From Armatimonadota bacterium (GTDB lineage Bacteria; Armatimonadota; SYMT01): a stretch of DNA of 64,000 bases. A model generated the notes under the pieces. The model searched no databases, was not told the origin of the DNA, and saw only the letters and a program-made list of their open reading frames with translations. Below are positions 717 through 56,080 of this stretch, piece by piece. The first letter of the stretch is position 1; every line of letters starts with the position of its first letter. Both the position numbers and the translations under genes were made by a program. Location of the stretch: contig JAWLHY010000009.1 of assembly GCA_041690135.1 (NCBI GenBank), positions 32,001-96,000 on the forward strand. The letters run 5' to 3'.

Positions 717-2164
717 CAGGGGTTCGCCCCTTCGTTTTGCAGCAGCTCCCGGACGATGCTTTCCATCGCCACGCCACGGCTGCCCTTGATCAAGATGACG
801 TCGCCGGGCTTGCGATGGGGCGCCAGCCGGCGCAGGACCTCGTCGTTGGTGGCACACACTTCGATCCGGTCGGCCGGGAAACCGGCGTCCCGCGCGGCGG
901 CGGCGATCCCCTCCGCCCGGTCTCCCACGGTCACGAGGCCGGCAAGGTCATGGCCGGCGACGGCCTCACCGACACAACGATGGGCCGCTTCACTGGCCGG
1001 ACCGAGTTCCAGCATGCTGCCGAGCACGGCGATCTTCCGCAGTCCCGAAACCTCCTTCAGCACTTCCAGCGCGGCCAGTACTGCCTCGGGACTGCTGGCG
1101 TTGTAGGCATCGTCCAGGATCATGGTGCTGTCGTTCAGCCGGTGGGTCGCCATGCGCATCCCACTGATCTCGGCCTCAGCGAGGCCCCGGTTGATCCGTA
1201 GGGGCGAGACATCAAGCGCCTGGCCGACCGCCGCCGCTGCCAGCGCATTGCGCACGTTGTGCCGCCCGAGAAGGGGAATCCAGGACCAGCGGACGGACAG
1301 TCCCTTGGCGACCCGGATCGCAAACCGGCTGCCGATCTGCCCTTTGCGGTCGTCGGAGCGGGTGCCGGGACCCATATAACTGCCGCTGACCCCTTGCCGC
1401 TCACCCCGGTCGATGCCGTAGGAAAGGAGCTTGGCCCCCGCCGGAATGCGCGACTTCAAGAAATCGTAGTAGCCGTCGTCGGCGTTCAGCACCGCGGTGC
1501 CGCCTACGGGCAGGAAGTCCAACAATTCGGCTTTCGCCTCGGCGATGGCGTCCTGGGAGCCGAGCAGCTCCATGTGGGAGAGGCCGATGTTGGTAATAAC
1601 CCCGATCTCGGGCCGCGCAATACGCGCGAGATATCGGATCTGCCCTGGTCCCCGCATCGCCAGTTCGACGACGGCGACTTCATGCTGGGCATTCAACTCG
1701 AAGAGAGTGAGGGGCAGGCCGATCTCGGCATTCAGGTTTCCGGGGCTCTTGAGCGTACGGTACTGTTGGGCCAGCACGCCGGCGATCAGGTCCTTGGTGG
1801 TGGTCTTGCCGACGCTGCCCGTTACCGCGATGATCCGCACCGGAAACCGGTTGCGGTGCCAGGTGGCCAGTTGGCCGAGGGCGAGGAGGGGGTCCGGCAC
1901 CTCGATGAGGGCCCCGCCGGTCTCGCTGCCGGCCGGCAACCGCTCGCCGCGGACCACCGCGGCGACGGCGCCGCGCGCAAAGGCATCTCCCACGAACTGG
2001 TGGGCGTCGAAGCGCTCGCCGCTGAGCGCAAAGAACAGGTCTCCGGGCTGGACCTGGCGCGTATCGGTGCAGATCCGCCGGACTACCTGGTCGGAGCTGC
2101 CGCCGGGCCGACGGAGCCGGGCGTCCAGCACCCGGGCGATCAGCTCAACGGGATAGTCGATCAT
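716..2164 (-). CDS. murF: UDP-MurNAc-tripeptide--D-Ala-D-Ala ligase
   Basis: Motifs TDTR, AVTGSVGKTTTK, NLNAEIGLP, DDAYNA and KGSRG; dcw position. Confidence 0.96.
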   Translation of the reverse strand: MIDYPVELIARVLDARLRRPGGSSDQVVRRICTDTRQVQPGDLFFALSGERFDAHQFVGDAFARGAVAAVVRGERLPAGSETGGALIEVPDPLLALGQLATWHRNRFPVRIIAVTGSVGKTTTKDLIAGVLAQQYRTLKSPGNLNAEIGLPLTLFELNAQHEVAVVELAMRGPGQIRYLARIARPEIGVITNIGLSHMELLGSQDAIAEAKAELLDFLPVGGTAVLNADDGYYDFLKSRIPAGAKLLSYGIDRGERQGVSGSYMGPGTRSDDRKGQIGSRFAIRVAKGLSVRWSWIPLLGRHNVRNALAAAAVGQALDVSPLRINRGLAEAEISGMRMATHRLNDSTMILDDAYNASSPEAVLAALEVLKEVSGLRKIAVLGSMLELGPASEAAHRCVGEAVAGHDLAGLVTVGDRAEGIAAAARDAGFPADRIEVCATNDEVLRRLAPHRKPGDVILIKGSRGVAMESIVRELLQNEGANP

Positions 2165-3668
2165 TCAAGGCCTTTCGAGCTTCTTCTCGGTCGTCAAAAT
2201 GCACGGTCCGGTCCGCAAAGATCTGGTAGTCTTCGTGGCCCTTGCCGGCGATTACCACCAGATCTCCCGCCTCGGCCAGAGCCACCGCGCGAGCGATGGC
2301 TGCGCGCCGGTCGACGAGTTGTTCCCAGCGCGCGCCACCGACCTCGACCACTCCCGCCGCCACCTGCGCCAGGATCGCCTGCGGGTCTTCGCTCCGGGGA
2401 TTGTCCGAAGTCAGGATGACCTGATCCGCCAGTTGGGCGGCGATCCGCCCCATGATGGGGCGCTTGCCCCGGTCGCGGTCGCCGCCGCAACCGAATACGA
2501 CGAGGAGGCGCCGCGGCTCCAGGGCGCGGGCCGCCCGCAGGACATTCTCCAGGCCGTCGGGGCTGTGCGCGTAATCGACGATCACCCCGAAATCCTGGCC
2601 TGCGTCCACGCTTTCGAACCGGCCGGGCACGCCCGTCGCACCCCGCAGGGCGGCCAGGATCACTTCCCAGGAGATACCCAGGGCGCGCGCAGCGCCCATC
2701 GCCGCCAGTGAATTGTAGACGTTGAACAGGCCTCCCAGCGGAAGTTCCACGGGAAACTCGCCTTCGGGGGACACGACATCAAAGCGCAGCCGGGTGGCGC
2801 TGCCCTCGACGTTGCGGGCCCGCAGGGTCGGCGCCTCGCCAAGGTGCGTGTCGGTATGCTCCACGCCGTAGGTGACGACGTGACCCTCGGACATCTCCGC
2901 GAGACGGCGGCCGTAAGGATCGTCGCCGTTGATGATCGCGGTAAAGGGCTTCGTCCCCGCCTTCGGGTACTCCGTGAACAGCAGGGCCTTCGCGCCGAAG
3001 TAGTCCTCCATGTCCCGGTGATAGTCGAGGTGGTCCTGGGTGAGGTTGGTGAACACGCCGACCTCGTATTCCGCTCCCGCCGTGCGACCCTGGGCCAACG
3101 CGTGCGACGAGACTTCCATGGCGACGACCATGCCCCGACCGTCATCCGCCTGTGCCATCCGCGCGAATAGAGCCTGCAGTTCCGGGGCCTCGGGCGTAGT
3201 CCGGTCGCCGGGTAGTGCCTCGTCGTTAATGCGCGCGCCAATCGTGCCGATGACGCCGGTATTCCTACCCGCGGCCCGCGCGATCGCCTCGATCAGGAAC
3301 GTTGTAGTGGTCTTACCGTTCGTGCCGGTAACCCCGACAAGCGAGATGCGGCCCGACGGGTGGTCGTAGAACGCCCGCGACAGCGGCCCCATCGCCCGGC
3401 GGACGTCCGGCACCAGGATCGCCGGCACCGGCAGATCGTTCCGTTCCTCGTCCACTACGGCCGCCACCGCGCCCGCGGCCACGGCGGCGGGGAGGAACTG
3501 CAGACCATCGGCCTTCTGTCCACGCACGCAGAAGAAGAGGTCGCCCGGACGGACCTTGCGCGAGTCGTAGGCCAGGCCGGTCACCTGCGGGAGAGTGGGC
3601 TCCGCATCCTGTAATGGAAGGATGCGAGCTCCCTCGACTGCGGAGGCAAGCCGATGCAGCTCAGTCAT
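2145..3668 (-). CDS. murE: UDP-MurNAc-dipeptide--meso-DAP ligase
   Basis: Motifs GVTGTNGKTTT, MEVSSH, TNLTQDHLDYH, DYAHSPD, SDNPRSE (DNPR is the DAP-type motif) and AGKGHE. Confidence 0.97.
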   Translation of the reverse strand: MTELHRLASAVEGARILPLQDAEPTLPQVTGLAYDSRKVRPGDLFFCVRGQKADGLQFLPAAVAAGAVAAVVDEERNDLPVPAILVPDVRRAMGPLSRAFYDHPSGRISLVGVTGTNGKTTTTFLIEAIARAAGRNTGVIGTIGARINDEALPGDRTTPEAPELQALFARMAQADDGRGMVVAMEVSSHALAQGRTAGAEYEVGVFTNLTQDHLDYHRDMEDYFGAKALLFTEYPKAGTKPFTAIINGDDPYGRRLAEMSEGHVVTYGVEHTDTHLGEAPTLRARNVEGSATRLRFDVVSPEGEFPVELPLGGLFNVYNSLAAMGAARALGISWEVILAALRGATGVPGRFESVDAGQDFGVIVDYAHSPDGLENVLRAARALEPRRLLVVFGCGGDRDRGKRPIMGRIAAQLADQVILTSDNPRSEDPQAILAQVAAGVVEVGGARWEQLVDRRAAIARAVALAEAGDLVVIAGKGHEDYQIFADRTVHFDDREEARKALNDRLSR

Positions 3669-39923: not shown

Positions 39924-41519
39924 GTGCGGTCGTCCGGAAGCGAAATTGATCCGGTGCCACCCTTTCCCACAACTCATTCCGTCTCCTCCGCCGGCGAGGG
40001 GGATCGACCTGCTGCCGGGGTCTCCCAGGCACGGTCGCCCCGGTGGCTGGCCGGGCTGCAGACCGTGGGCGTGGTGGGCGCTCTCCTGGCGTCGGTCGTG
40101 GCGGTGGCGTGGGTCATGGGCGGCGCTGCGTTGTTTTCGGGGCCACCGGATTGGACGGCTTACCGCGACCTCCGGCGCGTGCTGCCGGCCTGGAAGGAAC
40201 GCCGCGGGCCTGTACGGCGAGTGGTGGACGTGGTTTGCCTGGTGCCCGACCGGCGGACCTTTCTGGCGGCGCTTTCCACCTGGGACCGCGAGCACTTCTT
40301 CCCGATACTAATCGAGGACGATCGGTACACTCCGAAGTTCCTGCGCGCCTTTCGGCCCGGACGCGTGTTGCGTTATCCCCGGGTGGCGCCACCACGGGAC
40401 CCCTCCGCCACATGGGAAGAAGTGGTGCTGGCGGTGGGCCGCACCTGGCAGGAAGGCGGTCGTACCTCCCGCATTCGCGGCGATGCTCCACCTCCGCGAC
40501 GGCTGGGTGCCTGTCCGCCGGGAGTCGTTGTGGGTTCTCCCGGCCCATTACTGGCCGGAGCGGCCGCGCTGGCCGCCGGTCGCTTCCAGCCGCTGGTCCG
40601 TTGGGAGCCGTCCCTGGGCTATCTCGACCGTCCCGGTTACGATGCGGCCCGCAAGCTGGCGACCGAGTTGGAAGGATGCATCTCCAGAGTCGTGCCGCGC
40701 TACCGGGAAATGGGAGACGACTGCGATTTTCTCACGATGGCGACGGACTATCCGTACCGGTATCAGCACCGGGGCGACCAGGCCTTCGACGATCTGCTGG
40801 CGCGGGTCGAAGGGGAGCGGCGCTGGGGTTATGCCGGCCGCCTGGTGGGTACCGAAGCCGCTGTCGTGTACCAGGCCATGTGCAGCCTGTTCCTCCAGCC
40901 GCCGTCGACGCTGCTCTTCAATGGCTACACCGACTTCGATCAGCCGGGAGAGGTGGAGCCCGCCTCCTGGGGCAGTTACTCGCAACGGACCGCCGCCCGG
41001 GTGCTCTCGAACCGGATGACAACGACCTTGCGAGACGGCTTGCAGGCGGACCTTACCGGTTGGAAGGCGGCGTTCGGCCGGGAGAACCCGCATGGCCTGG
41101 TCTTCATCAACAGCAGCGGTGGCCCGGACTGGTTCAATCTGCGGGGTGCGCGAGGAAAGACGGATGACGTCCCGGAGAGCGTGCCTGCCGTGATCTACAA
41201 GATCCACAGCTTCTCCGCCGCTTCCCCCCACGATCCGGCAACCCTCGCCGGCCGCTGGCTCCGGAACGGAGCCTACATCTACTTCGGTTCCATGAATGAG
41301 CCGTACCTTCCGGCCTTCCGTACGCCGACCCTCGTCGCCTCCATGATCGGGGAGGGAGTGCCCTTCGCCGCCGCAATGCGCCGCGCGGACGCCCTGGAGC
41401 GCGATACGCCGTGGAGGCTGGTCTACCTGGGAGATCCCCTCTACCGGTTGGAGACGCGGACGGGGGAACGTCTTCGCACCTGGAACCCGATTGCGGAATG
41501 GTCCGCCGGCGATTACTGA
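39924..41519 (+). CDS. Hypothetical membrane-anchored protein
   Basis: N-terminal TM helix; C-terminal GAYIYFGSMNEPYLPAF...W..YLGDPLY resembles TIGR03790/C25-like tails. Start uncertain. Confidence 0.65.
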   Translation: MRSSGSEIDPVPPFPTTHSVSSAGEGDRPAAGVSQARSPRWLAGLQTVGVVGALLASVVAVAWVMGGAALFSGPPDWTAYRDLRRVLPAWKERRGPVRRVVDVVCLVPDRRTFLAALSTWDREHFFPILIEDDRYTPKFLRAFRPGRVLRYPRVAPPRDPSATWEEVVLAVGRTWQEGGRTSRIRGDAPPPRRLGACPPGVVVGSPGPLLAGAAALAAGRFQPLVRWEPSLGYLDRPGYDAARKLATELEGCISRVVPRYREMGDDCDFLTMATDYPYRYQHRGDQAFDDLLARVEGERRWGYAGRLVGTEAAVVYQAMCSLFLQPPSTLLFNGYTDFDQPGEVEPASWGSYSQRTAARVLSNRMTTTLRDGLQADLTGWKAAFGRENPHGLVFINSSGGPDWFNLRGARGKTDDVPESVPAVIYKIHSFSAASPHDPATLAGRWLRNGAYIYFGSMNEPYLPAFRTPTLVASMIGEGVPFAAAMRRADALERDTPWRLVYLGDPLYRLETRTGERLRTWNPIAEWSAGDY

Positions 41520-44419: not shown

Positions 44420-45658
44420 TCACTCCTTTGCGGACGGTTTCCCTGGCGCATCGCCGGAAAAACCGCGGACGGGCAACGGCAACTTCTCTCCACCAGGCTC
44501 CCCACTCTGCGCCGCCACGGGGAGGTCGTGCGGCGAGAGGGGCGGAGCGGATGAGGGAAGTGGCAGGTGCTTGAGACGCTCCGTGGCCTTCTCGATGTGA
44601 GAGATAGCGGCGCGGTAGGCGGCGATCGACTCCGGTCCTTCGAGGCCCCAGGGAGAACAGAGTTTCCGGAGCCTGGGGAGAGCCCGCTGCAACTCGGGGC
44701 TCGGGTCGTGCCGGGCGATATGGGCCAGGGCCTGGGCCGCGGCCCGGCGCGTGTGTGGCTGCGCTTGCTCCAGGGCGTTGCAGAGCGTGGGTACTGCTGG
44801 CGCGCCGATCCCAGCCAGTATGATCCAGGCCCGGCTGCGCAGGTCGCCATCCTCGACGGAAAGTAGCTCTCCCAGCGGGGCCGCCGCCAGGGCTCCCACC
44901 CGCACCAGCGCGACACCCGCCTTCTGCGACAGCAGGGCATCCGTGGAGCGCATGGAGGCCATCAGGGCGGCAACCGACTCCCGGCAGGGTATGCGGCCGA
45001 GGCCCTCCACGGCAGTCCAACGTACCTGTGACACATGGTCCGACAGGAGCTTTGTTAACTGGGGGAGCGCGCGCGGGTCGCGGAGCCCTCCCAGTGCGGC
45101 GGCGACTTCAACGCGCACCCCTGGGCTGCGGTCTTCCACCGCCTCACGTAAAACGTCCAAAGACCGGATGTCCGGATGGGCGCGGAGGACGCCGGCGGCG
45201 GACTGCCGGACGCCGTTATCGGCGTCCCGCATCGCTCGTTCTGCGAGGAGACGCGCGCGTTCCTCGACCGTCGTGGACATGCGCTCTCCAAGCGCCTCCA
45301 CTACCTGGCGACGCACGGGGGGCTGGGGATCCATTAGGAGTTGCTCCAGGAGATCGAGGGCCTCCGTTTCCGGCCTCCGCCCGAGAAGCCAGGCGAGTCG
45401 CACGCGCAAGAGGGTGTCGGGACAACGGAGCAACTCCCGCAACGTCGGAACCACGGCACTGCCGGAGGCCGCCAGGTTCTCAGCCGTCCGCTGCCAGTCT
45501 CCTTCGCGCGCGAGGAGGCCGGCAGCAAGCCGGTCCGGATCGAGACGATGCCCTTCCCACGGGCTATCGATGCCGGTTGGCTCCGCGGCGTGCCGCTGAG
45601 GAGTTGGCTCGCTATCGGGTTGGTTGTGAGGCGGGGTCCTGGAGTTGATCGTCGTCAC
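44420..45658 (-). CDS. HEAT (PBS-lyase type) repeat protein, paralog 5
   Basis: Repeats of the form VRxxAxxALGxL; GTG start overlapping the upstream stop (GTGA); triple LPxP tail. Confidence 0.85.
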   Translation of the reverse strand: MTTINSRTPPHNQPDSEPTPQRHAAEPTGIDSPWEGHRLDPDRLAAGLLAREGDWQRTAENLAASGSAVVPTLRELLRCPDTLLRVRLAWLLGRRPETEALDLLEQLLMDPQPPVRRQVVEALGERMSTTVEERARLLAERAMRDADNGVRQSAAGVLRAHPDIRSLDVLREAVEDRSPGVRVEVAAALGGLRDPRALPQLTKLLSDHVSQVRWTAVEGLGRIPCRESVAALMASMRSTDALLSQKAGVALVRVGALAAAPLGELLSVEDGDLRSRAWIILAGIGAPAVPTLCNALEQAQPHTRRAAAQALAHIARHDPSPELQRALPRLRKLCSPWGLEGPESIAAYRAAISHIEKATERLKHLPLPSSAPPLSPHDLPVAAQSGEPGGEKLPLPVRGFSGDAPGKPSAKE

Positions 45659-46740
45659 TCCTTTCCCCTGAATCGGTTGAAGTGGCACCGGACCGCCGTG
45701 ATGACAGCAGTCAGCAGCGCCTGTACCCCTTCGAGAGGAACTCGGCGTGCACTGGAAGACGCAGGAGGGTTGTCCGGAGGAGGCGAGCCGACAGGGCGGG
45801 GGAGACGGCAGTCTCTTTCCAGGGGGCCTTTACCCACGAGCGGAAGCTGGTGGACCGTATTCGGAGCCGAATCCGCCGGTAAGGGCAATCCGCGCACGTG
45901 CGCCGTCGCCCGTTCGATCTTGCGGATAGCCTCCTGATACACGTCGCCAGCGCCGTTGAGCTCTCCAAGGTGCGCCGCCGACCCGACCAGCCGCCGGAGT
46001 CGCGGCAGCGCGCCCTCGAGGCCGGGCGTGGGGTCTCGCTCGGCGATGCCGCAGAGGGCCTCCGCCGCCCGGAACCGGATGAGTTCCTGGTCCTGAAGGG
46101 CGGCGATCAGGCCCAGCACGGCCCGGGCGTCTCCCACCTTCCCGAGCGCTTCCGCGGCCGCGGCACGGACCTCCGTATCCCGGTCGCGGAGCGCTTCGAC
46201 CAACGCCGGCACGGCACTCCCGCTGCCGAGCAGTCCCAGGGCTCGCGCCGCTTGCCGCCGGACACTCCGGTCATTATCTTCCAGGACCGCCTCCAGCGTG
46301 GAAATGATCTCCCGGCGCGGTGCTTTCTCGACCGCTTCGGGAGCCCGTTCGATGAGGAGCGCCAGTGCTTCCACGCAGCGGTGGCGCACGCGCCAATGCT
46401 CGTCGCGGGCTCCCTGCGTAAGAGGGAGCAGGGCCCGCCCGTCCGCCACTCGCCGGAGCGCCTCGGCCGCCTCACACCGGACCTCCCAATCGAGGTCCTC
46501 GAGGGCCGCGCAAAGGGGTTCGATGGCTACCGGATCGGCCAGTTCGCCCAGGGTCATCGCTGCCTGGCGGCGCAGTTCCCAATCATCATCCTTCAGGGCG
46601 CGACACAGAGCGGGAAGTGTGGGCGGCCCGAATTGGAGGAGAGACACACGCGCGAGCCGCTGCGTGTTCGGGTTGCGCTCCTTCAACTGGACGATGAGTG
46701 CGGCGATCTCGCCCGGGTCGCGGTCGTTCGTTTTCAGCAC
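45655..46740 (-). CDS. HEAT repeat protein, paralog 4
   Basis: About 7 repeats (ALKDDDWELRRQAAMTLG etc.); triple LPxP tail; start at GTG 46740 inferred. Confidence 0.85.
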   Translation of the reverse strand: MLKTNDRDPGEIAALIVQLKERNPNTQRLARVSLLQFGPPTLPALCRALKDDDWELRRQAAMTLGELADPVAIEPLCAALEDLDWEVRCEAAEALRRVADGRALLPLTQGARDEHWRVRHRCVEALALLIERAPEAVEKAPRREIISTLEAVLEDNDRSVRRQAARALGLLGSGSAVPALVEALRDRDTEVRAAAAEALGKVGDARAVLGLIAALQDQELIRFRAAEALCGIAERDPTPGLEGALPRLRRLVGSAAHLGELNGAGDVYQEAIRKIERATAHVRGLPLPADSAPNTVHQLPLVGKGPLERDCRLPRPVGSPPPDNPPASSSARRVPLEGVQALLTAVITAVRCHFNRFRGKE

Positions 46741-46768
46741 CTTCGGCCCCGTTCCGGTGAGTGCTGGC

Positions 46769-47395
46769 TCATCCCAGCATTCCCGGCCAAATGTATGCGA
46801 GGAACCGCATAGCCCAGTAGATCGTGGGACGAGTTCCCGGTGTCTCGTAATCTGCGTTGGGTAGGGCCGCAAGGGGGAGGCGGGACTCGGACCCAACGGT
46901 AGGAAAGGCCGGCCGGGGCAGCGTTTCGTTGGATTGAGCGCCGGCCAGGGCGGGGAGGGGAAGGTCCTTAAAGCCGGCCGTGACTATCTCGATCTTCTCC
47001 AGCGTCAGGCGGCACTCCCGCTGCACCACCGGAAGCTCGGAACGGCGGTGCGCAATCCGCCTTCGGAGCAACGGGACAGCCGTCCGGAGCTCCGGGCCCG
47101 GGCAGTGGTCCGCCAGGTCCCGGAGCGCCTTCGCCGCGGCCTGCCGGACTGGAAAACTCAGGTCTCCGAGGGCCTGGCAGAGAGGCCCCACGGCGTCCGG
47201 ATGGCCGGTGGCTCCCAGGGCGCGCACGGCAGCCAGGCGCTGATCGCGCGTCCGCATCTCCCAGAAGGGATCATCCGCGCCTACAACTCCTGTTTTTGGC
47301 ACCCGGAGCACCTCTGCGAGCCGCGGCACCGTCTCGGTGGGAAGGAGAGGTCCGTCTTCGGGGTTTAGAGGCGCCCACATCCTGTTCGGCTCCAT
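46769..47395 (-). CDS. HEAT repeat protein, paralog 3
   Basis: RLAAVRALG and ALGDLSFPVRQAAAKAL; triple LPxP tail. Confidence 0.8.
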   Translation of the reverse strand: MEPNRMWAPLNPEDGPLLPTETVPRLAEVLRVPKTGVVGADDPFWEMRTRDQRLAAVRALGATGHPDAVGPLCQALGDLSFPVRQAAAKALRDLADHCPGPELRTAVPLLRRRIAHRRSELPVVQRECRLTLEKIEIVTAGFKDLPLPALAGAQSNETLPRPAFPTVGSESRLPLAALPNADYETPGTRPTIYWAMRFLAYIWPGMLG

Positions 47396-47420
47396 CGGCT
47401 TGAGTCCACCTGTTCCAGGA

Positions 47421-48518
47421 TTACTTTAAACGACTCCGTAGCCAGCCCATCCACCGCTGGAGCCAGTGCCCATGGGCCACGGCCGGTAGCCCGAGGTCCG
47501 TACCGGAGGATGACGGCAGCGGCAACTCGCCGGCCACGGGATTGGGGGCTCCCGCGGGCCGGGGGAGAGCGTGGGCCTCCATCGCTCCGGACTCGGCCGG
47601 GAGCGGCAGGTCATACAGTTCCGCCGTCGCCGTTTCGACGGCATCGAGTGCGGCCTGATACTTTTCCCGGGCTACCGCCCCTTCGCGATTCCAGCCGGAG
47701 GCGAGACGCTGCAGTGAACTCACTGCCCCGCGCAGAGCCAGCACGTGGTGCTCGCGGGCCACGTCTCGCAGCGCCATCGCGGCCTCCTGGCGCACCTCGG
47801 CACGGCGGTCTTCAAGCGCCTCGATGAGCAGGGGAATCGTTTCCGGGTTCTTCAGCTTACCCAGGACGCGCACGGCCAACATCCGGGCATCCGCGTTTGC
47901 TTCCCGGACGACTTCCGCTAGCGGTTGAATCGTCGGGTCTCCGATCTGGACCAGGGCCAGCCAGGCACGCTCCTGGACCGTTTCGAACTTGTCCCAAAGC
48001 GCCGCGGTGAGCACGGGAATCGCGGAAGGATCCCCGATCCGGCCGAGGGCTTCGGCGGCCTCCATACGGAGCAGGGCTCGCTGCTCCTTCGTGGGCGCCG
48101 GAACCGGAGCGCCGTTCTCCAGCCGGTCGTCTCGCTCGAGAGCGTTGTGGGCGGGCTGCCACATGTAGCCGAACTTGTCCTTTAGCGCCGCACAGAGAGC
48201 GGGCACGGCGGATACGTCCCGGATCCGTCCCAGTACCCAGGCCGCGCGCCAGCGGACCGCCCAGTCCTCGTGGCGGAGTGCCTCGCACAGCGCATCCACA
48301 GGTCGAGAACCCATGCCGACCAGGCGCGTTTGGGCCGCCGTGCTCACGGTCCAATCCGCGCTGCCCAGGTCGCGGATCAACTCCGCGAGGGGATCCAGGT
48401 CCTCTCCGGGAGGCTCGTTCCGCGGAGGGGTGCCGGGCGAGCCGGAAGGAGGCAGCCCCTCCATCGGGGGCGGCCGCAGCGAAAGCCGGGTCAGGGGCGT
48501 GGGGATGAACTCGTGCAT
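47421..48518 (-). CDS. HEAT repeat protein, paralog 2
   Basis: ALRHEDWAVRWRAAWVLG and ALEDRRAEVRQEAAMAL; triple LPxP tail. Confidence 0.87.
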   Translation of the reverse strand: MHEFIPTPLTRLSLRPPPMEGLPPSGSPGTPPRNEPPGEDLDPLAELIRDLGSADWTVSTAAQTRLVGMGSRPVDALCEALRHEDWAVRWRAAWVLGRIRDVSAVPALCAALKDKFGYMWQPAHNALERDDRLENGAPVPAPTKEQRALLRMEAAEALGRIGDPSAIPVLTAALWDKFETVQERAWLALVQIGDPTIQPLAEVVREANADARMLAVRVLGKLKNPETIPLLIEALEDRRAEVRQEAAMALRDVAREHHVLALRGAVSSLQRLASGWNREGAVAREKYQAALDAVETATAELYDLPLPAESGAMEAHALPRPAGAPNPVAGELPLPSSSGTDLGLPAVAHGHWLQRWMGWLRSRLK

Positions 48519-48563
48519 GATGCGGGCACGGACGACGATGTGTTAGGGATTATACCCGCTCTC

Positions 48564-49157
48564 CTAATCTTCTTCAGACGGAAGTGGGAGGCCGCGCGCT
48601 TTGAGTTCGGAGCTTGCCGGGAGTGGGAGGCTCGCAAGCTCGGCCCCGGGAGCCTCGGCAGGTAAGGGAAGGGTGTCGCTCGCGTCTGTCAGCGTCTGGA
48701 TCCGCTCTGCTAGTGCACGGAAGACCACCTTATGATCCCGGTGGACCCTGCCGGAAGCACACAGCTTCTCCAGATCCGGCAACAGTGCACGAAGTGCCGT
48801 GGGTTGTGGACCGTCGAGCAGGGTCAGTAGCGCTTGGGCGATCTCCAGACGAAAGGACAGGTCCGCGCTGAATAGCGGGATATTCGTTATGCGTTCAATC
48901 AGGTTCGGACCCGCTTTGCTTCCCACCATCTTCGATCGCCGCAGGAACTCCTGGCAGAGCACCGGGACAGAGGCCGGGCCGATCCTTGCGAGCGCTTCGA
49001 TCGTGCGACCTTCGAGATCGGGGATTTCTCCGCGAAGGACTCTCTCCAGAACGGGAATAGCAGCCGGATCGCGCAGCTTTCCCAGGGCGACGACCGCATT
49101 GGATCGATCGCTGTGATGTTTAGAGCGAAGGCGCTTCGCAAACGCGGCGACGGACAT
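48564..49157 (-). CDS. HEAT repeat protein, paralog 1
   Basis: RSNAVVALGKLRDPAAIPVL and EALARIGPASVPVL; triple LPLP tail. Confidence 0.8.
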   Translation of the reverse strand: MSVAAFAKRLRSKHHSDRSNAVVALGKLRDPAAIPVLERVLRGEIPDLEGRTIEALARIGPASVPVLCQEFLRRSKMVGSKAGPNLIERITNIPLFSADLSFRLEIAQALLTLLDGPQPTALRALLPDLEKLCASGRVHRDHKVVFRALAERIQTLTDASDTLPLPAEAPGAELASLPLPASSELKARGLPLPSEED

Positions 49158-49187
49158 AGTTCTGCCAGCTACCAGGACGGCTAGTGA

Positions 49188-50756
49188 TCATCGCAGCCGG
49201 ACCACCGGTTCGTTGATACGGAGCGGCTGCTTGCGGACCAGGTCCTCCACCGTCGTGCAGAGCCAGCGGTCGCTGTTGATGTGATAGGTCACGCGCAAGC
49301 GGGGCGAGGTGCCGCGACCGATTGGCCGCAACGGGAGCGGGGCATCCGCCGGGTTCAGCTCCACGACCTGGGCCTTTTCCATTGCGTTGTCCGGGCGCGG
49401 CGCCCAGTACCGGTTGCCGTTGGGCCTCGGCTCCCACGCCACGGGCGCCTGCCCAAGCCGGCCGACCTCGCATACGGAGATGCGGACCTCCTCCATGGAA
49501 GGGTAGTCCGCGTAGTAGCGGACCGCAAAGTTGGGAGCGGTGGGGTAGCGGGTACGGCGCGGCACCAGGAGCTCATATTCCGGAGTGTGGGTCCGCTCGT
49601 TCTGCACCGCAACCGCATAGTCGTGGTAGATGAAGTCGTCCACGGCCACCCCGCCCGCGTAGCGCGCCGCTCCCAACGCGACGGACGTGAACACATAAGC
49701 CGGGTCGTGCCGCACGACCGCCTTGGGGAAGGCGTCGTCCACCACGGCCGGGATCTCGGGTAACTGGGTGGAGCCTCCGGTCAGGAGCACCTCGTCGACC
49801 CCGCCGGCCAGGGGGTCCTCCTCGAGCTGGCGTTTGATATCCTGGAGGGCGATGCGAAGTTGCTCGTAGAGCCCTCGCTCCGACAGCACTTTCACCAGGT
49901 CGGCCCGCGTCAACTCCGCGCGGAACCCTCCCCAGCGGAACTCCGCCTTACCTTCCCGGCTGGCGCGCTCCTTGGCGAACATCGCCTCCCAGCGGAGGTC
50001 GCGCTGCCACTCGGGGATGTCACGGACTTCGCCGGGGACGAAATACTCCATCAGCCACCGGTCGACCTGGTCTCCCCCGATATTGACCATGTGCTTGGCC
50101 AGTACGGGCGCGCCGCCGGTGTGCGCCGCCTGGGGACCCAACCGAACGGCGGCCAGGTTCAGCGTGCCACCGCCGAAATCCACGACCAGGAGGGTTTCTT
50201 CCCGCGCGATGTTGACCCCGTATCCCAGTCCGGCCGCGACCGGCTCATCGAGCGATCGGAACCGTTTGATGCCCACGTCCCGGGCCAGGGACTGGAGCTC
50301 CGCCCGGTAATGCTCGAAATAGCCGACCGGCGCGGGGATGGTGAGGTCGGTGATCTTCGTTTGGAACTGCTTTCCCGCCGCGCGCACCAATTCCCGCAGG
50401 AAAAGGTGCGTTACCTCCCGGACGGAAAGCTCCTGGGATCCGACCTTGAGGATTGGCCGGTGTGGCTCGTCGGCGAGGCGGGGCTTGAAGCTCTGGGCGA
50501 AAGCGGGTGAGCGGCCGTCGAAGTTTCGGCTGAGAGCCTGCTGACCAATCAACACCTTGCGCACCCGTCGCCGGAAAAAGTACAGGAACCGCTGCCACTC
50601 CTCGGTAATGTGAACGGCCGAGGGCACAAGTGGCGATTGGTCGGTGGGCAGCGTCCGCCCCAGGTTCGGGAGATGAACCACGCGCACGCTGCCGTCTTCC
50701 GCCAGGGCGACGACGCTGTTCGTGGTCCCGAGATCAACAGCCCACTGTTCAGGCAT
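49188..50756 (-). CDS. Atypical Hsp70-family ATPase
   Basis: AVDLGTTNS, LDEPVAA, VVDFGGGT, IGGDQVD, LLTGGSTQLP and SVALGAA; short non-canonical C-terminal domain. Confidence 0.9.
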   Translation of the reverse strand: MPEQWAVDLGTTNSVVALAEDGSVRVVHLPNLGRTLPTDQSPLVPSAVHITEEWQRFLYFFRRRVRKVLIGQQALSRNFDGRSPAFAQSFKPRLADEPHRPILKVGSQELSVREVTHLFLRELVRAAGKQFQTKITDLTIPAPVGYFEHYRAELQSLARDVGIKRFRSLDEPVAAGLGYGVNIAREETLLVVDFGGGTLNLAAVRLGPQAAHTGGAPVLAKHMVNIGGDQVDRWLMEYFVPGEVRDIPEWQRDLRWEAMFAKERASREGKAEFRWGGFRAELTRADLVKVLSERGLYEQLRIALQDIKRQLEEDPLAGGVDEVLLTGGSTQLPEIPAVVDDAFPKAVVRHDPAYVFTSVALGAARYAGGVAVDDFIYHDYAVAVQNERTHTPEYELLVPRRTRYPTAPNFAVRYYADYPSMEEVRISVCEVGRLGQAPVAWEPRPNGNRYWAPRPDNAMEKAQVVELNPADAPLPLRPIGRGTSPRLRVTYHINSDRWLCTTVEDLVRKQPLRINEPVVRLR

Positions 50757-50761
50757 GAATC

Positions 50762-51412
50762 CTACTTCCGGTCAAACGTAACGGTTAGAGCGTAAACGTC
50801 CGCGGCGCCCGCCATCCGCAGCACGGCCGCGCACTCCGAGAGCGTGGTGCCGGTCGTCCGCACGTCGTCAACGAGCACGAGACGTGCGCCGTGCACCTTG
50901 TGCCGCGGAGTAAGTTCGAACGCACCCCGCAGATTCTCCTCGCGCTCGGCCGCGGAAAGCCCGACCTGGTGCGGCGTGGCGCGGGTGCGACGCAGGGCCT
51001 TCCACACCGGTAGGTCGGCATGTCGACCCGTGGCGTGGGCAAGAAACTCGGACTGGTTGAAGCCCCGCTCGAGAAGACGCCTCCAGTGGATAGGAACGGG
51101 CACCAGCGCGTTTGGTTGCCATTCGGAAAGCAGCGCACGCAGTTCTTCTGAGAGCAACCGGGCCAGCGGTTCCACCAGGGCCACCTGCTGACCGAACTTC
51201 AGCCGCAGCACCGCCCGGCGCAGGCTTTCCTCATGGTAACCCACGCTCCTCACCGCCGTGATTCCCAGCGGTAGCACGCCCGCTTCTTCCACCGGCCGGA
51301 TCTCTGCCCTGCACGCCGCGCAGTACGTCTCCGCCAGCGCCCCACACGTCAGGCACTTCGGCGGAAAGAGCATATCAAGGGTGCCGTTACCGAGCTTGCG
51401 TAGGAGGTCCAT
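50762..51412 (-). CDS. comF: ComF family protein (double zinc ribbon plus phosphoribosyltransferase)
   Basis: LFPPKCLTC...CAAC, VPVPIH, RGFNQS and LVDDVRTTGTT. Confidence 0.92.
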   Translation of the reverse strand: MDLLRKLGNGTLDMLFPPKCLTCGALAETYCAACRAEIRPVEEAGVLPLGITAVRSVGYHEESLRRAVLRLKFGQQVALVEPLARLLSEELRALLSEWQPNALVPVPIHWRRLLERGFNQSEFLAHATGRHADLPVWKALRRTRATPHQVGLSAAEREENLRGAFELTPRHKVHGARLVLVDDVRTTGTTLSECAAVLRMAGAADVYALTVTFDRK

Positions 51413-52928: not shown

Positions 52929-53831
52929 ATGTTGAACACCCGGATTCTCGCGGAGCGCGGCTACCACAAGCCCCCGAAATGGCTGCCCGAAGTGATCCAG
53001 TACGAAACCCAGATGGGCTCCGTCGCCTACGGGGTCTCCAGCGACAGCAGCGACGTCGACCTGTACGGTTTCGCCATTCCGCCCAAGGACCTGATTTTTC
53101 CGCACCTGGCGGGCGAAATTCCCGGGTTCGGGCGACAGGTCAAGCGGTTCGAGCAGTACCAGCAGCATCATATCCAGTCGCCGGACGAGCTGGGCGGCAA
53201 GGGGCGCGTCTACGACGTCACGATCTTCTCCATCGTCAAGTTCTTCCAACTGGCCATGGAAAACAACCCGAACATGGTGGATGCCATGTTCACCCCGCAG
53301 ACCTGCGTCCTCACCTGCACGAAGGTCGGCACCATGGTCCGCGAGAACCGGCGAATGTTCCTGCACAAGGGGAGCTGGCACAAGTTCAAGGGCTATGCCT
53401 ACGGCCAGAAGAACAAGATGTTCACCAAGACCCCGACCGAAGGCTCCAACCGCCGCGACGACTACGAAAAGTACGGCTTCGACCTGAAAGCCGGGTACCA
53501 CTGCGTGCGGCTGATGCTGCAGGTGGAGCAGATCCTGGTGGAAGGGGATCTCGACCTGATGCGGCACAGGGAGCAGCTTAAAGCGATCCGCGCCGGCGAC
53601 TGGACCGCGGAGCAGATCGCCCAGTTCTTTCAGGAGAAGGAGAAGTCCCTCGAAGCGCTCTACGTGAACAGTCCCCTCCGCCACAGCCCGGACGAGGCGC
53701 AGATCAAGGAACTGTTGCTCCAGTGCCTGGAGGAGCACTACGGCTCCCTGCGCGGCATGGTGGAAACCCCCGACCGTGCCGTCGAGACTCTCCGCCGGAT
53801 CAAGGAACTCTGCGAGGAAGCTGGAGTCTGA
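52929..53831 (+). CDS. Pol-beta superfamily nucleotidyltransferase (PF10127 / RlaP-like)
   Basis: GSVAYGVSSDSSDVD (GS...DxD), NNPN, GYAYGQ and K.GYHCVRL. Confidence 0.85.
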   Translation: MLNTRILAERGYHKPPKWLPEVIQYETQMGSVAYGVSSDSSDVDLYGFAIPPKDLIFPHLAGEIPGFGRQVKRFEQYQQHHIQSPDELGGKGRVYDVTIFSIVKFFQLAMENNPNMVDAMFTPQTCVLTCTKVGTMVRENRRMFLHKGSWHKFKGYAYGQKNKMFTKTPTEGSNRRDDYEKYGFDLKAGYHCVRLMLQVEQILVEGDLDLMRHREQLKAIRAGDWTAEQIAQFFQEKEKSLEALYVNSPLRHSPDEAQIKELLLQCLEEHYGSLRGMVETPDRAVETLRRIKELCEEAGV

Positions 53832-54277: not shown

Positions 54278-56080
54278 ATGCGTTTTCACCGTGGGGGTGG
54301 AAGGTGGCTTGCCGGTCCGGTACTGGCATTGCTGGTTGTTGTGCAACCACACGTGGAGGCACAGTCCGGTAAGAACGCGGCGGCACGCGCTCGGACCGTC
54401 GCTGCCGCGCTGGCGAAGTTGCAGGTGGCCGAGGGGCTTCGCGAGGCGGAGCAGGCTGTTGCGGCCCATCCGGAAAGCGGTCTCCTCCAGTTGCGCCTGG
54501 CCCAGGCGCAAGTTTGCGCGGCCCTGGACGCCGATGAACGACTGGGGCAGGTCGTGGACAACCTGGGCCTCCACCAGGGTCTCCAGCGCGGCCTCTCCAT
54601 GCTGCGGCAGGGCGGGCAGGGACCCCTCGACGGAAAGCCGGATGCAGTGGAAGCGGCACGGAAGGCCATCGAGGCAAATGCGCGCGAGATCCTGACGGAA
54701 GTGACCCTGAACGCCGTGGACCGGTTTCAGACGCAGGTTCGCCGGCAGGTTGCGGAGAGTGGTCCCCTGGTGGAGCGCCGGAACGGTCTGCTGGCGGATG
54801 CACTGGAGACTCTGAAAAGTGCTCGGAGACTGGGTGAGGACTCGACAGAACTCGCGCTCACCGATCTCTGGGTCCGGGTGGTCTGGCTGCTCTGGCGTGC
54901 GGAGCGGCCGGTTGTCACTGCGCATCTGGAGAAACTGGCCGCCGAGCGTCCCGTGGAAGGGCTGAATGCCTTTGCCGCCGGGCTTTCCCTGGCGAGCCTG
55001 GAAGGCGCACTGGGCGGAAAGTCGCAAAACTCCGCGGAAGTGGTGTTGAAGGCGGCTCTCCATCTCGCGGACCACCGGAAGGATGACCCGGCCGCGCTGG
55101 CCGGCGCCGCGGATATCCTTTCGGTCGTGGCCGGCATTCGGGGCGACCGGGATCCCCTCCAGCAGTACATCCTGTCCCGGCTTAACGGGCGCTACCTCGA
55201 CCGGCAGACGCAGTTGCGGGTCGGCCAGGAGAACGGGGCGGAGGCGGCGCGGCGGCTGTATGAGCAGGCAACCGGCGAGGGCGACGTGGAGGGCACGAAG
55301 GCGCCCACGGTGGCTGCCTTCCGGCTGTACGAACGAGCCCTCAAATCGGACCGCGACGGGAAGCTGCCGTATCTCCGGGTTCGCCTCTTCCTGCTCCGCG
55401 CGGCGTTCGACCCGAACCGCGCGGAAGAATTGCTCCAAGGGCTGGCCCGACGGGAGCCGCGTAACGCGGAAGTTCCCCTGGAACGCGCCCGGGTCGCCCT
55501 GCGGCTGGAGAACAACCTCCCGCAGGCCGTAGCCTACTGCCGGGAAGCGGGACGTCTGGCCGACTTTCGGCGCTCTTACCTGGTGAGTGTGCCCGAATCG
55601 CTGCGCCCGGCGCTCAAATTCCATCGCGGCGTCCGGGACCTGGTGAAGCGGGGTTGGCCGGATTACTCCGGCCTGTTCACCTCACTGCGAGAGGTGCAAA
55701 CGGCAGCGCCGAATCCCGAGGCGCGCCTCGAACTCCGAATGCTGCGCCTGCATCTCGCCGAACGGTTGTGCGGCGCCGACGACTACCCGGACCAGGCCTT
55801 CGGCATCCATGAAAAGGCGGGAGTGCTGGATGAGCTCGGCAACGGGCGAGAGCCGCTCTCGCCGGAGCAGCGGCTCCGGGTGGAAGTCCTGAAGCGGGAG
55901 CACGAGCGGGCGTACGCCACATTTCCGCGCCAGCATACCCGAATCGAACTCAGTGGCGAAGGCGTCGAGTACCGGAGCGTGCCGGCCCTGACGACCTCGA
56001 GCGGTCGGAAGAGCGGCGCGCGGATGTCTATTTCCGCGAACGGAATGCTGTCCATGGGGCTCAAGTTTTCCGGCCAGTAA
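54278..56080 (+). CDS. Hypothetical secreted alpha-helical (TPR-like) protein
   Basis: GGAGG RBS, signal peptide, Ala/Leu/Arg-rich helical repeats. Confidence 0.7.
   Translation: MRFHRGGGRWLAGPVLALLVVVQPHVEAQSGKNAAARARTVAAALAKLQVAEGLREAEQAVAAHPESGLLQLRLAQAQVCAALDADERLGQVVDNLGLHQGLQRGLSMLRQGGQGPLDGKPDAVEAARKAIEANAREILTEVTLNAVDRFQTQVRRQVAESGPLVERRNGLLADALETLKSARRLGEDSTELALTDLWVRVVWLLWRAERPVVTAHLEKLAAERPVEGLNAFAAGLSLASLEGALGGKSQNSAEVVLKAALHLADHRKDDPAALAGAADILSVVAGIRGDRDPLQQYILSRLNGRYLDRQTQLRVGQENGAEAARRLYEQATGEGDVEGTKAPTVAAFRLYERALKSDRDGKLPYLRVRLFLLRAAFDPNRAEELLQGLARREPRNAEVPLERARVALRLENNLPQAVAYCREAGRLADFRRSYLVSVPESLRPALKFHRGVRDLVKRGWPDYSGLFTSLREVQTAAPNPEARLELRMLRLHLAERLCGADDYPDQAFGIHEKAGVLDELGNGREPLSPEQRLRVEVLKREHERAYATFPRQHTRIELSGEGVEYRSVPALTTSSGRKSGARMSISANGMLSMGLKFSGQ

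Follow-up and report, generated by a model that had tools for sequence, protein, structure and literature searches.

A predicted lidless Hsp70 and neighbouring HEAT-repeat proteins with a shared Leu-Pro tail in Armatimonadota and other bacteria

What is an atypical Hsp70 doing in a bacterial gene row directly beside five HEAT-repeat proteins that differ in length and end alike? The locus that raises this question lies at 44420-51412 of the window, by which we mean the whole 64000-nucleotide (nt) stretch of DNA analysed here, from contig JAWLHY010000009.1 of an Armatimonadota bacterium. It consists of seven open reading frames (ORFs), all on the minus strand and arranged head to tail: a comF-like gene, a gene for an Hsp70-like protein and five HEAT genes, named here H1-H5. 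A preliminary description of the window had proposed that the seven genes form one system, in which variable solenoids with a constant C-terminal tag would feed one chaperone-type ATPase. To see which parts of this proposal hold, we analysed the Hsp70-like protein, the HEAT proteins with their tail and the occurrence of both in other genomes.

The Hsp70-like gene (49188-50756, minus strand) codes for 522 residues. The Pfam scan placed PF00012 (80.7 bits, cut-off 20.6) on residues 7-381 only, and the match ended at position 390 of the 599 in the profile. HscA (TIGR01991) was the best-scoring NCBIfam model, with 101 bits against a cut-off of 708, and the DnaK model (TIGR02350; 81 against 822 bits) and the YegD-type model (PRK11678; 60 against 331 bits) were likewise below their cut-offs. 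In an alignment of 15 relatives, the motifs DLGTTN, DEPVAA, DFGGGT and GGST.LP were invariant or nearly so, and D8, G10, N13, E171, D193-F-G-G-G and G327-G-S were invariant. The best-conserved part of the protein in this alignment was its last 150 residues.

The whole-chain AlphaFold model (pLDDT, the predicted local distance difference test, 83.6) showed nine strands behind an actin-fold domain, and the chain ended at residue 522 with the last strand. Its top fold matches were DnaK, BiP and Hsc70 (E 1e-30 to 1e-25), and its best match in the PDB was a DnaK deletion mutant lacking SBDalpha, the helical lid of the substrate-binding domain (SBD). The C-terminal domain modelled alone (pLDDT 90.6) again had nine strands, and it gave VIA Z scores of 10.0, 9.5, 8.9, 8.2 and 7.2 to the SBDs of Hsp70, mortalin, BiP and DnaK over 101-112 aligned residues, compared with 5.7 for the next unrelated chain. 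Among the top 50 Foldseek matches of this domain, those listed were Hsp70-family SBDs (DnaK, BiP and Hsc70) or one ciliary chain that aligned likewise. When a profile of the domain was compared with PDB sequences the matches were weak (E 0.08-1.3) and nearly all to Hsp70 SBDs, the conserved strand P.G.G..PRLRVTY aligning to PPAPRGVPQIEVTF. In an hhalign comparison with the DnaK of this genome, the invariant DFIYHDY fell on the FLLLDV linker, though with a low probability (5%). Because the motifs, the structure models and the fold comparison agree, we assign the protein as a predicted lidless Hsp70, comprising a nucleotide-binding domain (NBD; residues ~1-370, 49647-50756, the PF00012 part), a hydrophobic linker and the beta-sandwich part of the SBD (SBDbeta). 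The linker, DFIYHDY, and the SBD take up residues ~371-522 (49188-49646) and are followed by the stop codon, with neither a helical lid nor a C-terminal tail. The Armatimonadota members have an extra beta-hairpin at residues ~47-70, with many aromatic and many basic side chains (..WQRFLYFFRRRVR..), which is missing in the Gemmatimonadota-type relatives.

All five HEAT proteins matched HEAT_2 (28.5-132 bits, cut-off 27.7) and HEAT_PBS (30-76 bits, cut-off 20.9), and the alignments gave them a common C-terminal module of ~100 residues, in which a final HEAT repeat containing ALPxLRRL precedes a helix A..IE.AT and three LPxP motifs. In H1 (48564-49157, minus strand as are the other four; 197 aa) the module lies at 48567-48875, with LPLP three times at residues 163, 177 and 190 and no terminal helix. 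H2 (47421-48518; 365 aa; HEAT_2 111 bits) has its module at 47499-47813 with motifs starting at 304, 318 and 332, followed by a Trp/Arg-rich amphipathic end, and H3 (46769-47395; 208 aa; HEAT_2 38.5 bits) at 46853-47167 with motifs starting at 145, 159 and 173 and a C-terminus that is hydrophobic or amphipathic. H4 (45655-46740; 361 aa when counted from GTG 46740; HEAT_2 132 bits) carries the module at 45778-46092 and then a C-terminal extension of 45 residues. The module of H5 (44420-45658; 412 aa; HEAT_2 125 bits) is at 44456-44770. In the numbering of the long ORFs the motifs start at 337, 351 and 365 in H4 and at 375, 389 and 403 in H5, so that the step from one motif to the next within H1-H5 is 14 or 13 residues. 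The shared module noted in the preliminary description is therefore present in all five proteins with its triple LPxP tail, but what had been taken as its first helix is a HEAT repeat, as long HEAT-only proteins match positions 1-32 of the tail profile repeatedly, up to 19 times.

The same regularity was seen beyond the window. Across 43 modules from this genome and from relatives, the three Pro residues alone were invariant and the Leu residues at least 90% conserved, with free spacers between them. At least three chained motifs were found in 39 of 44 family members, and 57 of 78 spacings measured exactly 14 residues. An exhaustive profile search with the tail reached 604 library clusters at E<=1e-10, and among the representatives of up to 900 aa (n=142) there were at least three motifs in 105 and a spacing of 14 in 202 of 241 cases. 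A word-indexed homolog search with the tail profile gave 3 matches, to longer proteins, the short low-complexity module making such a search uninformative. Since Pro and Leu are kept at a fixed spacing while the spacers vary, the tail reads as a repeated short linear motif in a predicted disordered segment.

Recent tandem duplication as the source of the five paralogs was rejected. None of H1-H5 is more than ~40% identical to another or to any family member examined, and their best matches lie as often elsewhere, in this genome or in others, as within the array; the five are therefore old, in agreement with the divergence noted in the preliminary description. The family also varies around the tail. 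An uncharged hydrophobic, transmembrane-like stretch precedes the module in 58 of the 142 representatives, and in these the tail stops directly behind the third motif. In many other members, H2 and several paralogs among them, the chain runs on beyond that motif as an amphipathic helix rich in Trp and Arg, whose hydrophobic moment is 0.55-0.85 (0.57 for the terminal stretch HWLQRWMGWLR of H2). H1 and H5 have the tail and neither membrane device. On these features, many tail-family members are likely to carry a membrane-anchoring element.

The pairing of this Hsp70 with tail-bearing HEAT proteins was analysed at 80 loci of the Hsp70 subfamily from Armatimonadota, Gemmatimonadota and Acidobacteriota. 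Subfamily members are common among Armatimonadota (57-98% identity) and occur also in Gemmatimonadota (Longimicrobiales and Palauibacter, 41-45%) and Acidobacteriota (Thermoanaerobaculia and Holophagales, 35-37%). Three tail profiles were used for the counts, built from the window, from 6 Gemmatimonadota loci and from 3 Acidobacteriota loci. A co-directional tail ORF stood directly beside the Hsp70 gene at 60 of the 80 loci, or at 51 of 71 when the nine profile-training loci were left out, and 6 further loci had a tail ORF on the same strand within 10 kb. No opposite-strand tail match was found at any of the 80 loci. Six of the 14 loci without a tail match end less than 1 kb from the Hsp70 gene, and the other 8 have adequate flanks. 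An initial count by regular expression (64 of 80 loci) was discarded, as its background was 8.4% (63 of 746 ORFs) and it produced spurious 'upstream partners'; the counts given here come from the profile hidden Markov models.

The arrangement of the partners differs between phyla. Armatimonadota have downstream arrays of HEAT-tail genes (seven in L026, three in L027, two in L030 and several in L032), or in L031 and L055 an array upstream of the Hsp70 gene, and Gemmatimonadota and most Acidobacteriota have one HEAT-tail partner per locus. The Gemmatimonadota partner, of ~440-460 aa, ends ALPRLREVLR...AI.KLEARASLPRAA...TLPRAA...TLPRGS, and a protein-atlas look-up returned for it just 'HEAT repeat' clusters from Gemmatimonadota and Acidobacteriota. 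The Thermoanaerobaculia partner, of ~450 aa, ends in AIAEIQSRLPGASPGQLSLA, after which GQLSL recurs another three or four times with a period of 11. Motif type thus follows the Hsp70 clade: LP[LRIV]P three times in Armatimonadota, LPRA or LPRG three times in Gemmatimonadota, and in Thermoanaerobaculia one LP motif and then GQLSL four to five times. What is conserved is the Hsp70 gene with its HEAT-tail gene or genes, not the seven-gene operon. The linkage of the Hsp70 subfamily to a constant tag on HEAT proteins, as first proposed from this one window, is thereby upheld in three phyla, whereas five tandem paralogs are not the conserved layout.

On three contigs labelled Actinomycetota or Gammaproteobacteria (L029, L074 and L087), the Hsp70-like genes have 64-68% or 44% identity to that of the window, values like those of the Armatimonadota and Gemmatimonadota genes, and these contigs are possibly mis-binned. 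Near the pair at a few Acidobacteriota and Gemmatimonadota loci there are a TIR-pentapeptide gene, PIN genes or two integrase genes (L101:7570-8781, plus strand; L044:12907-13347, minus; L104:7519-7953, plus; L073:6859-8991, minus), too few for a pattern.

In a phyletic sample of 151 Armatimonadota genomes, this one included, an SBD profile was used for the Hsp70 and a narrow, window-derived profile for the tail. The Hsp70 was found in 33 and the tail in 11 of the 151 genomes; 8 of the 11 tail-positive genomes had the Hsp70, compared with 25 of the 140 tail-negative ones, counts that are descriptive because related genomes are not independent. In the 25 genomes with the Hsp70 only, the tail may be too diverged for the narrow profile. 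Three genomes of the window's family had 22-25 tail matches each.

Within its own 9.1-Mb assembly, the tail module is found in ~25 proteins: the five of the window, a seven-gene array on the same contig (C9:346.7-352 kb), three genes at C13, pairs at C2 and C3, and several singles. The seven tandem genes of the C9 array (346725-352008) code for proteins of 240-350 aa, each combining a single HEAT_2 unit with an uncharged hydrophobic stretch and a C-terminal tri-motif tail (...LPRxxx), and the three genes at C13:51490-54082 are of the same type. A second Hsp70 of the subfamily, 42% identical to the window copy, is encoded at C19:104191-105759. Its gene overlaps the start of a gene for a 384-aa HEAT protein with a degenerate tail (RPRA...LPID...RPRS), and a secretin gene lies upstream of this module (104191-106892). 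The tail also ends two proteins without HEAT repeats, a pentapeptide-repeat protein (L115:6006-7076, minus strand) and a Spo0M-domain protein (L117:5701-6546, minus strand), and is therefore a portable module. Third-position GC content of the tail-family genes, both in the window (44420-49157) and at the other loci of this genome (L106-L119), is ~0.66-0.74 compared with 0.8-0.9 in their neighbours, which could reflect repeat composition, fast evolution or foreign origin.

How might the Hsp70 and the tail be related? Hsp70 clefts take short extended peptides with a hydrophobic core. In a 2021 review, HscA is described as recognising only the LPPVK of IscU, with the Pro in the pocket, and proline-rich antimicrobial peptides as occupying the SBD of DnaK in the way that substrates do (PMC8215388). 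By analogy, the Leu-Pro tail may be a built-in ligand for the SBD cleft of a dedicated lidless Hsp70, as LPPVK is for HscA. Of the explanations considered here this is the one we favour, at about even odds, on the grounds of an Hsp70 that is predicted to be lidless and otherwise intact, the adjacency in three phyla, a Leu-rich motif with fixed spacing and clade-specific form, and the portability of the tail. We infer that tail–cleft contact, ATP dependence, membrane location and biological role would fit together as follows. The last HEAT repeat would lead through the capping helix A..IE.AT into a disordered tail, whose three Leu-Pro motifs ~14 residues apart would occupy the peptide cleft and give an ATP-controlled recruitment of the Hsp70 to the HEAT proteins. 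Probably on the inner side of the membrane, the Hsp70 would then assemble, hold or dismantle whatever is built or bound by the variable solenoids, and the two Hsp70 copies would be shared by the five window paralogs and the ~20 elsewhere in the genome.

A number of observations weigh against the tail as a cleft ligand. About 20 of the ~25 tail proteins sit away from both Hsp70 copies, and no neighbour gene or other ATPase common to the other tail arrays of this genome was found. Eight loci with adequate flanks have no tail ORF (L029, L041, L074, L084, L085, L091, L092 and L094), and the HEAT partner in L085 has L.L.EP-like repeats in place of the Leu-Pro motif. Three of the 11 tail-positive genomes (G035, G012 and G129) had no such Hsp70 at E<=1e-10, G129 being an assembly of 2 contigs that is 94% complete. 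Scattered paralogs, tail-only genomes and partnerless loci all oppose a strict one-to-one dependence. The co-variation of motif and Hsp70 clade is not independent evidence, because both follow phylogeny. The residue equivalent to D201 of DnaK is Asn in the window protein and varies among the 15 relatives, so the ATPase activity may be low. No conserved J-domain protein or nucleotide exchange factor was found nearby in the 19 loci scanned with Pfam. Finally, the binding site of the Leu-Pro motifs could lie elsewhere, for instance in the HEAT groove. Just upstream of the Hsp70-like gene in L085, an Armatimonadota locus, there is a weak GrpE-like ORF (1478-2173, plus strand; 26.4 bits, cut-off 25.8), the sole such match.

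In a second explanation, the genes are functionally linked and the tail does not enter the Hsp70 cleft. Its Leu-Pro motifs would then serve a different partner or a HEAT groove, in their own molecule or in an adjacent one, or would form a spacer to a membrane anchor, and the Hsp70 would act generically on the solenoid. The distance of most tail proteins from Hsp70 genes and the tail-bearing genomes in which no such Hsp70 was seen both speak for it, and with a transmembrane-like segment in 58 of 142 representatives and an amphipathic end in many others, the tail may be a mere linker. However, a plain linker would not hold three Leu-Pro pairs at a 14-residue spacing, nor would it change its motif type with the Hsp70 clade, and there are proteins, H1 and H5 among them, whose tail comes without an anchor. 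We consider this explanation rather unlikely. The notion of a variable solenoid with a constant tag feeding one chaperone-type ATPase is still live, since the linkage is conserved and the tag is portable, although the scatter of the family in its own genome counts against it. That the HEAT family might prove scattered and unlinked to this Hsp70 had been foreseen in the preliminary description; the scatter is there, but the linkage holds at 60 of 80 loci.

If the tail does reach the cleft, the HEAT proteins may be clients, as IscU and clathrin are, or adaptors, as Fes1 is, two roles that sequence does not tell apart. As co-chaperones or adaptors, in keeping with the idea first put forward for this locus, they would bind the Hsp70 NBD or outside targets through the solenoid and present the tail as a substrate mimic in the cleft, in the manner of Fes1/HspBP1, so that the paralogs aim one ATPase at different targets. 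The 1:1 pairing in Gemmatimonadota and most Acidobacteriota loci, the constant module on a variable solenoid and the lack of a conserved J-domain protein or exchange factor nearby argue for such a role. There is also a precedent in Fes1, described as having an Hsp70-binding armadillo domain and a flexible release domain seated in the substrate pocket (PMC6615629). Fes1 and, putatively, the HEAT-tail proteins are helical-repeat Hsp70 partners with a flexible segment for the substrate pocket; compared by description, the Fes1 release domain differs in being N-terminal, without a repeated Leu-Pro motif and eukaryotic. A link to Fes1/HspBP1 in sequence or fold was not seen, and none was searched for. 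Moreover, the tail also occurs on a non-solenoid protein (Spo0M), no outside client is evident, and the proposal relies on the same presumed contact of tail and cleft as the built-in ligand. An adaptor role thus seems doubtful to us.

As clients, the HEAT-tail proteins might form a membrane-associated alpha-solenoid scaffold or coat that is assembled or disassembled by the lidless Hsp70 gripping the Leu-Pro motifs of the tail, with the paralogs as different scaffolds served by one motor. This would be a bacterial counterpart of clathrin uncoating, in which the heavy chain, itself an alpha-solenoid, offers Hsc70 the QLMLT of its flexible C-terminal tail (PMC2830701), and the GQLSL repeats of the Acidobacteriota partners may be set beside that motif. 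Clathrin differs in being eukaryotic, in needing the J protein auxilin and in having a single motif, and no lattice or coat is known here; the likeness is an analogy only, and we hold a scaffold of this kind to be improbable.

The closest bacterial comparison is HscA/IscU, also a specialised Hsp70 with few dedicated partners, adjoining genes and a Leu-Pro motif for the cleft, which here is predicted (PMC8215388). In contrast with HscA, the window protein is without the lid, an HscB-type J protein or Fe-S genes, and its score to the HscA model is 101 against the 708 of the cut-off; on the partner side there is a HEAT solenoid whose C-terminal tail repeats the motif three times, in a family of ~25 paralogs. 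HscC resembles it as a specialised, low-abundance bacterial Hsp70 that the same review describes as thought to act at the membrane (PMC8215388), but HscC keeps its lid and uses the membrane-anchored J proteins DjlB and DjlC, of which there is no counterpart here.

A role in defence or conflict had also been considered in the preliminary description. In such a system the diversified HEAT proteins would sense invaders, and the Hsp70-like ATPase would pass on the signal. The tandem, strongly diverged paralogs, the third-position GC of the family below that of its neighbours and the PIN, TIR-pentapeptide, PD-(D/E)XK or integrase genes near a few loci are in line with this. So is CnuD (or CnuCD) of the type III CoCoNuT systems, described as a bacterial Hsp70-like NBD and SBD associated with HEAT-like repeats (PMC11090510). 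In that account, however, CnuD is fused or lies in McrBC-type operons with HEPN RNases and has degenerate ATPase motifs (PMC11090510), whereas the genes here are separate and the motifs largely intact. Neither a McrB-like GTPase nor McrC/DUF2357 was present in the seven genes and six flanking genes, and no nuclease, tubulin or other effector either. Another kind of conflict system links a TRAFAC GTPase and a tubulin homolog to HSP70 (Kaur et al. 2020, PMC7159879), and neither of the two was found in the operon or its flanks. The seven proteins had no Pfam match to DUF3731 or DUF2760; a search of the genome with PF12531 (DUF3731) also found no match, a weak negative as the control genomes had none either. 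PADLOC-DB gave 0 families for the Hsp70, generic HEAT-ARM matches for the HEAT proteins and phosphoribosyltransferase-type matches for comF, and the neighbours in other genomes were mostly housekeeping genes that differed between loci. The defence role was thus not borne out, and we judge it very improbable.

The comF-like gene (50762-51412, minus strand) ends 5 nt upstream of the Hsp70 start codon, an adjacency that could suggest a competence-linked assembly module working with ComF. Its 216-aa product has a double zinc ribbon and a probable phosphoribosyltransferase domain, with DZR_2 at 29.9 bits (cut-off 27), Pribosyltran at 23.2 bits (just below the cut-off of 26.3) and the comF model TIGR00201 at 114 bits (below the cut-off of 233). 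No comF homolog was found within 10 kb of the Hsp70 gene at any of the 80 related loci, same-family relatives included, nor among 112 neighbouring proteins of the 19 Pfam-scanned loci, where the upstream genes differed from locus to locus. The window comF is also the only copy in the genome, and is therefore an ordinary housekeeping gene. On these two grounds, its place beside the Hsp70 gene is incidental, comF drops out of the proposed system, and the competence reading was rejected, its chance of being right being negligible.

The layout of the run itself agrees with the preliminary description: all seven genes are on the minus strand, with gaps of 5, 30, 45, 25, 28 and -4 nt, given GTG starts for H4 at 46740 and for H5 at 45658. 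The H5 start, which overlaps the H4 stop by 4 nt, has GGAAAGGA upstream. The H4 start is uncertain because TTG 46896, upstream of GTG 46740, is also open; a 361-aa library representative whose C-terminus is the same as that of H4 agrees with the start at 46740. No terminator-like site was found in the minus-strand gaps (4 on both strands, compared with 4.9 expected by chance), and co-transcription of the seven genes is therefore plausible. Upstream the operon is bordered by a 360-nt gap and an ornithine cyclodeaminase gene, and downstream by a converging BNR-repeat gene. Also upstream lies an RlaP-family nucleotidyltransferase gene (52929-53831, plus strand), and no Pfam match was obtained for two large plus-strand ORFs of 531 and 600 aa (39924-41519 and 54278-56080).

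The prokaryotic Hsp70 types named in the 2021 review are DnaK, HscA and HscC (PMC8215388), and a 2026 review terms other Hsp70 derivatives unexplored (PMC13580251). In the main texts of open-access papers and preprints we found no description of the Hsp70/HEAT-tail pairing, in line with the preliminary description, whose author knew of no system with this layout. As a specialised Hsp70 whose dedicated partners are tagged by a motif, the pairing would belong to a known kind, in a form that appears to be new. The module would add a lidless class of Hsp70 that apparently brings its own partner family. Because the short repeated motif on its partners is legible in the sequence, it would offer a directly testable recognition code, with defined peptides and mutations, for a single ATPase, and it may help to approach the function of the bacterial HEAT_PBS proteins, which are very common and unexplained. 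If the partners are indeed membrane scaffolds or adaptors, the module would bear on the pre-eukaryotic origin of chaperone-driven assembly cycles.

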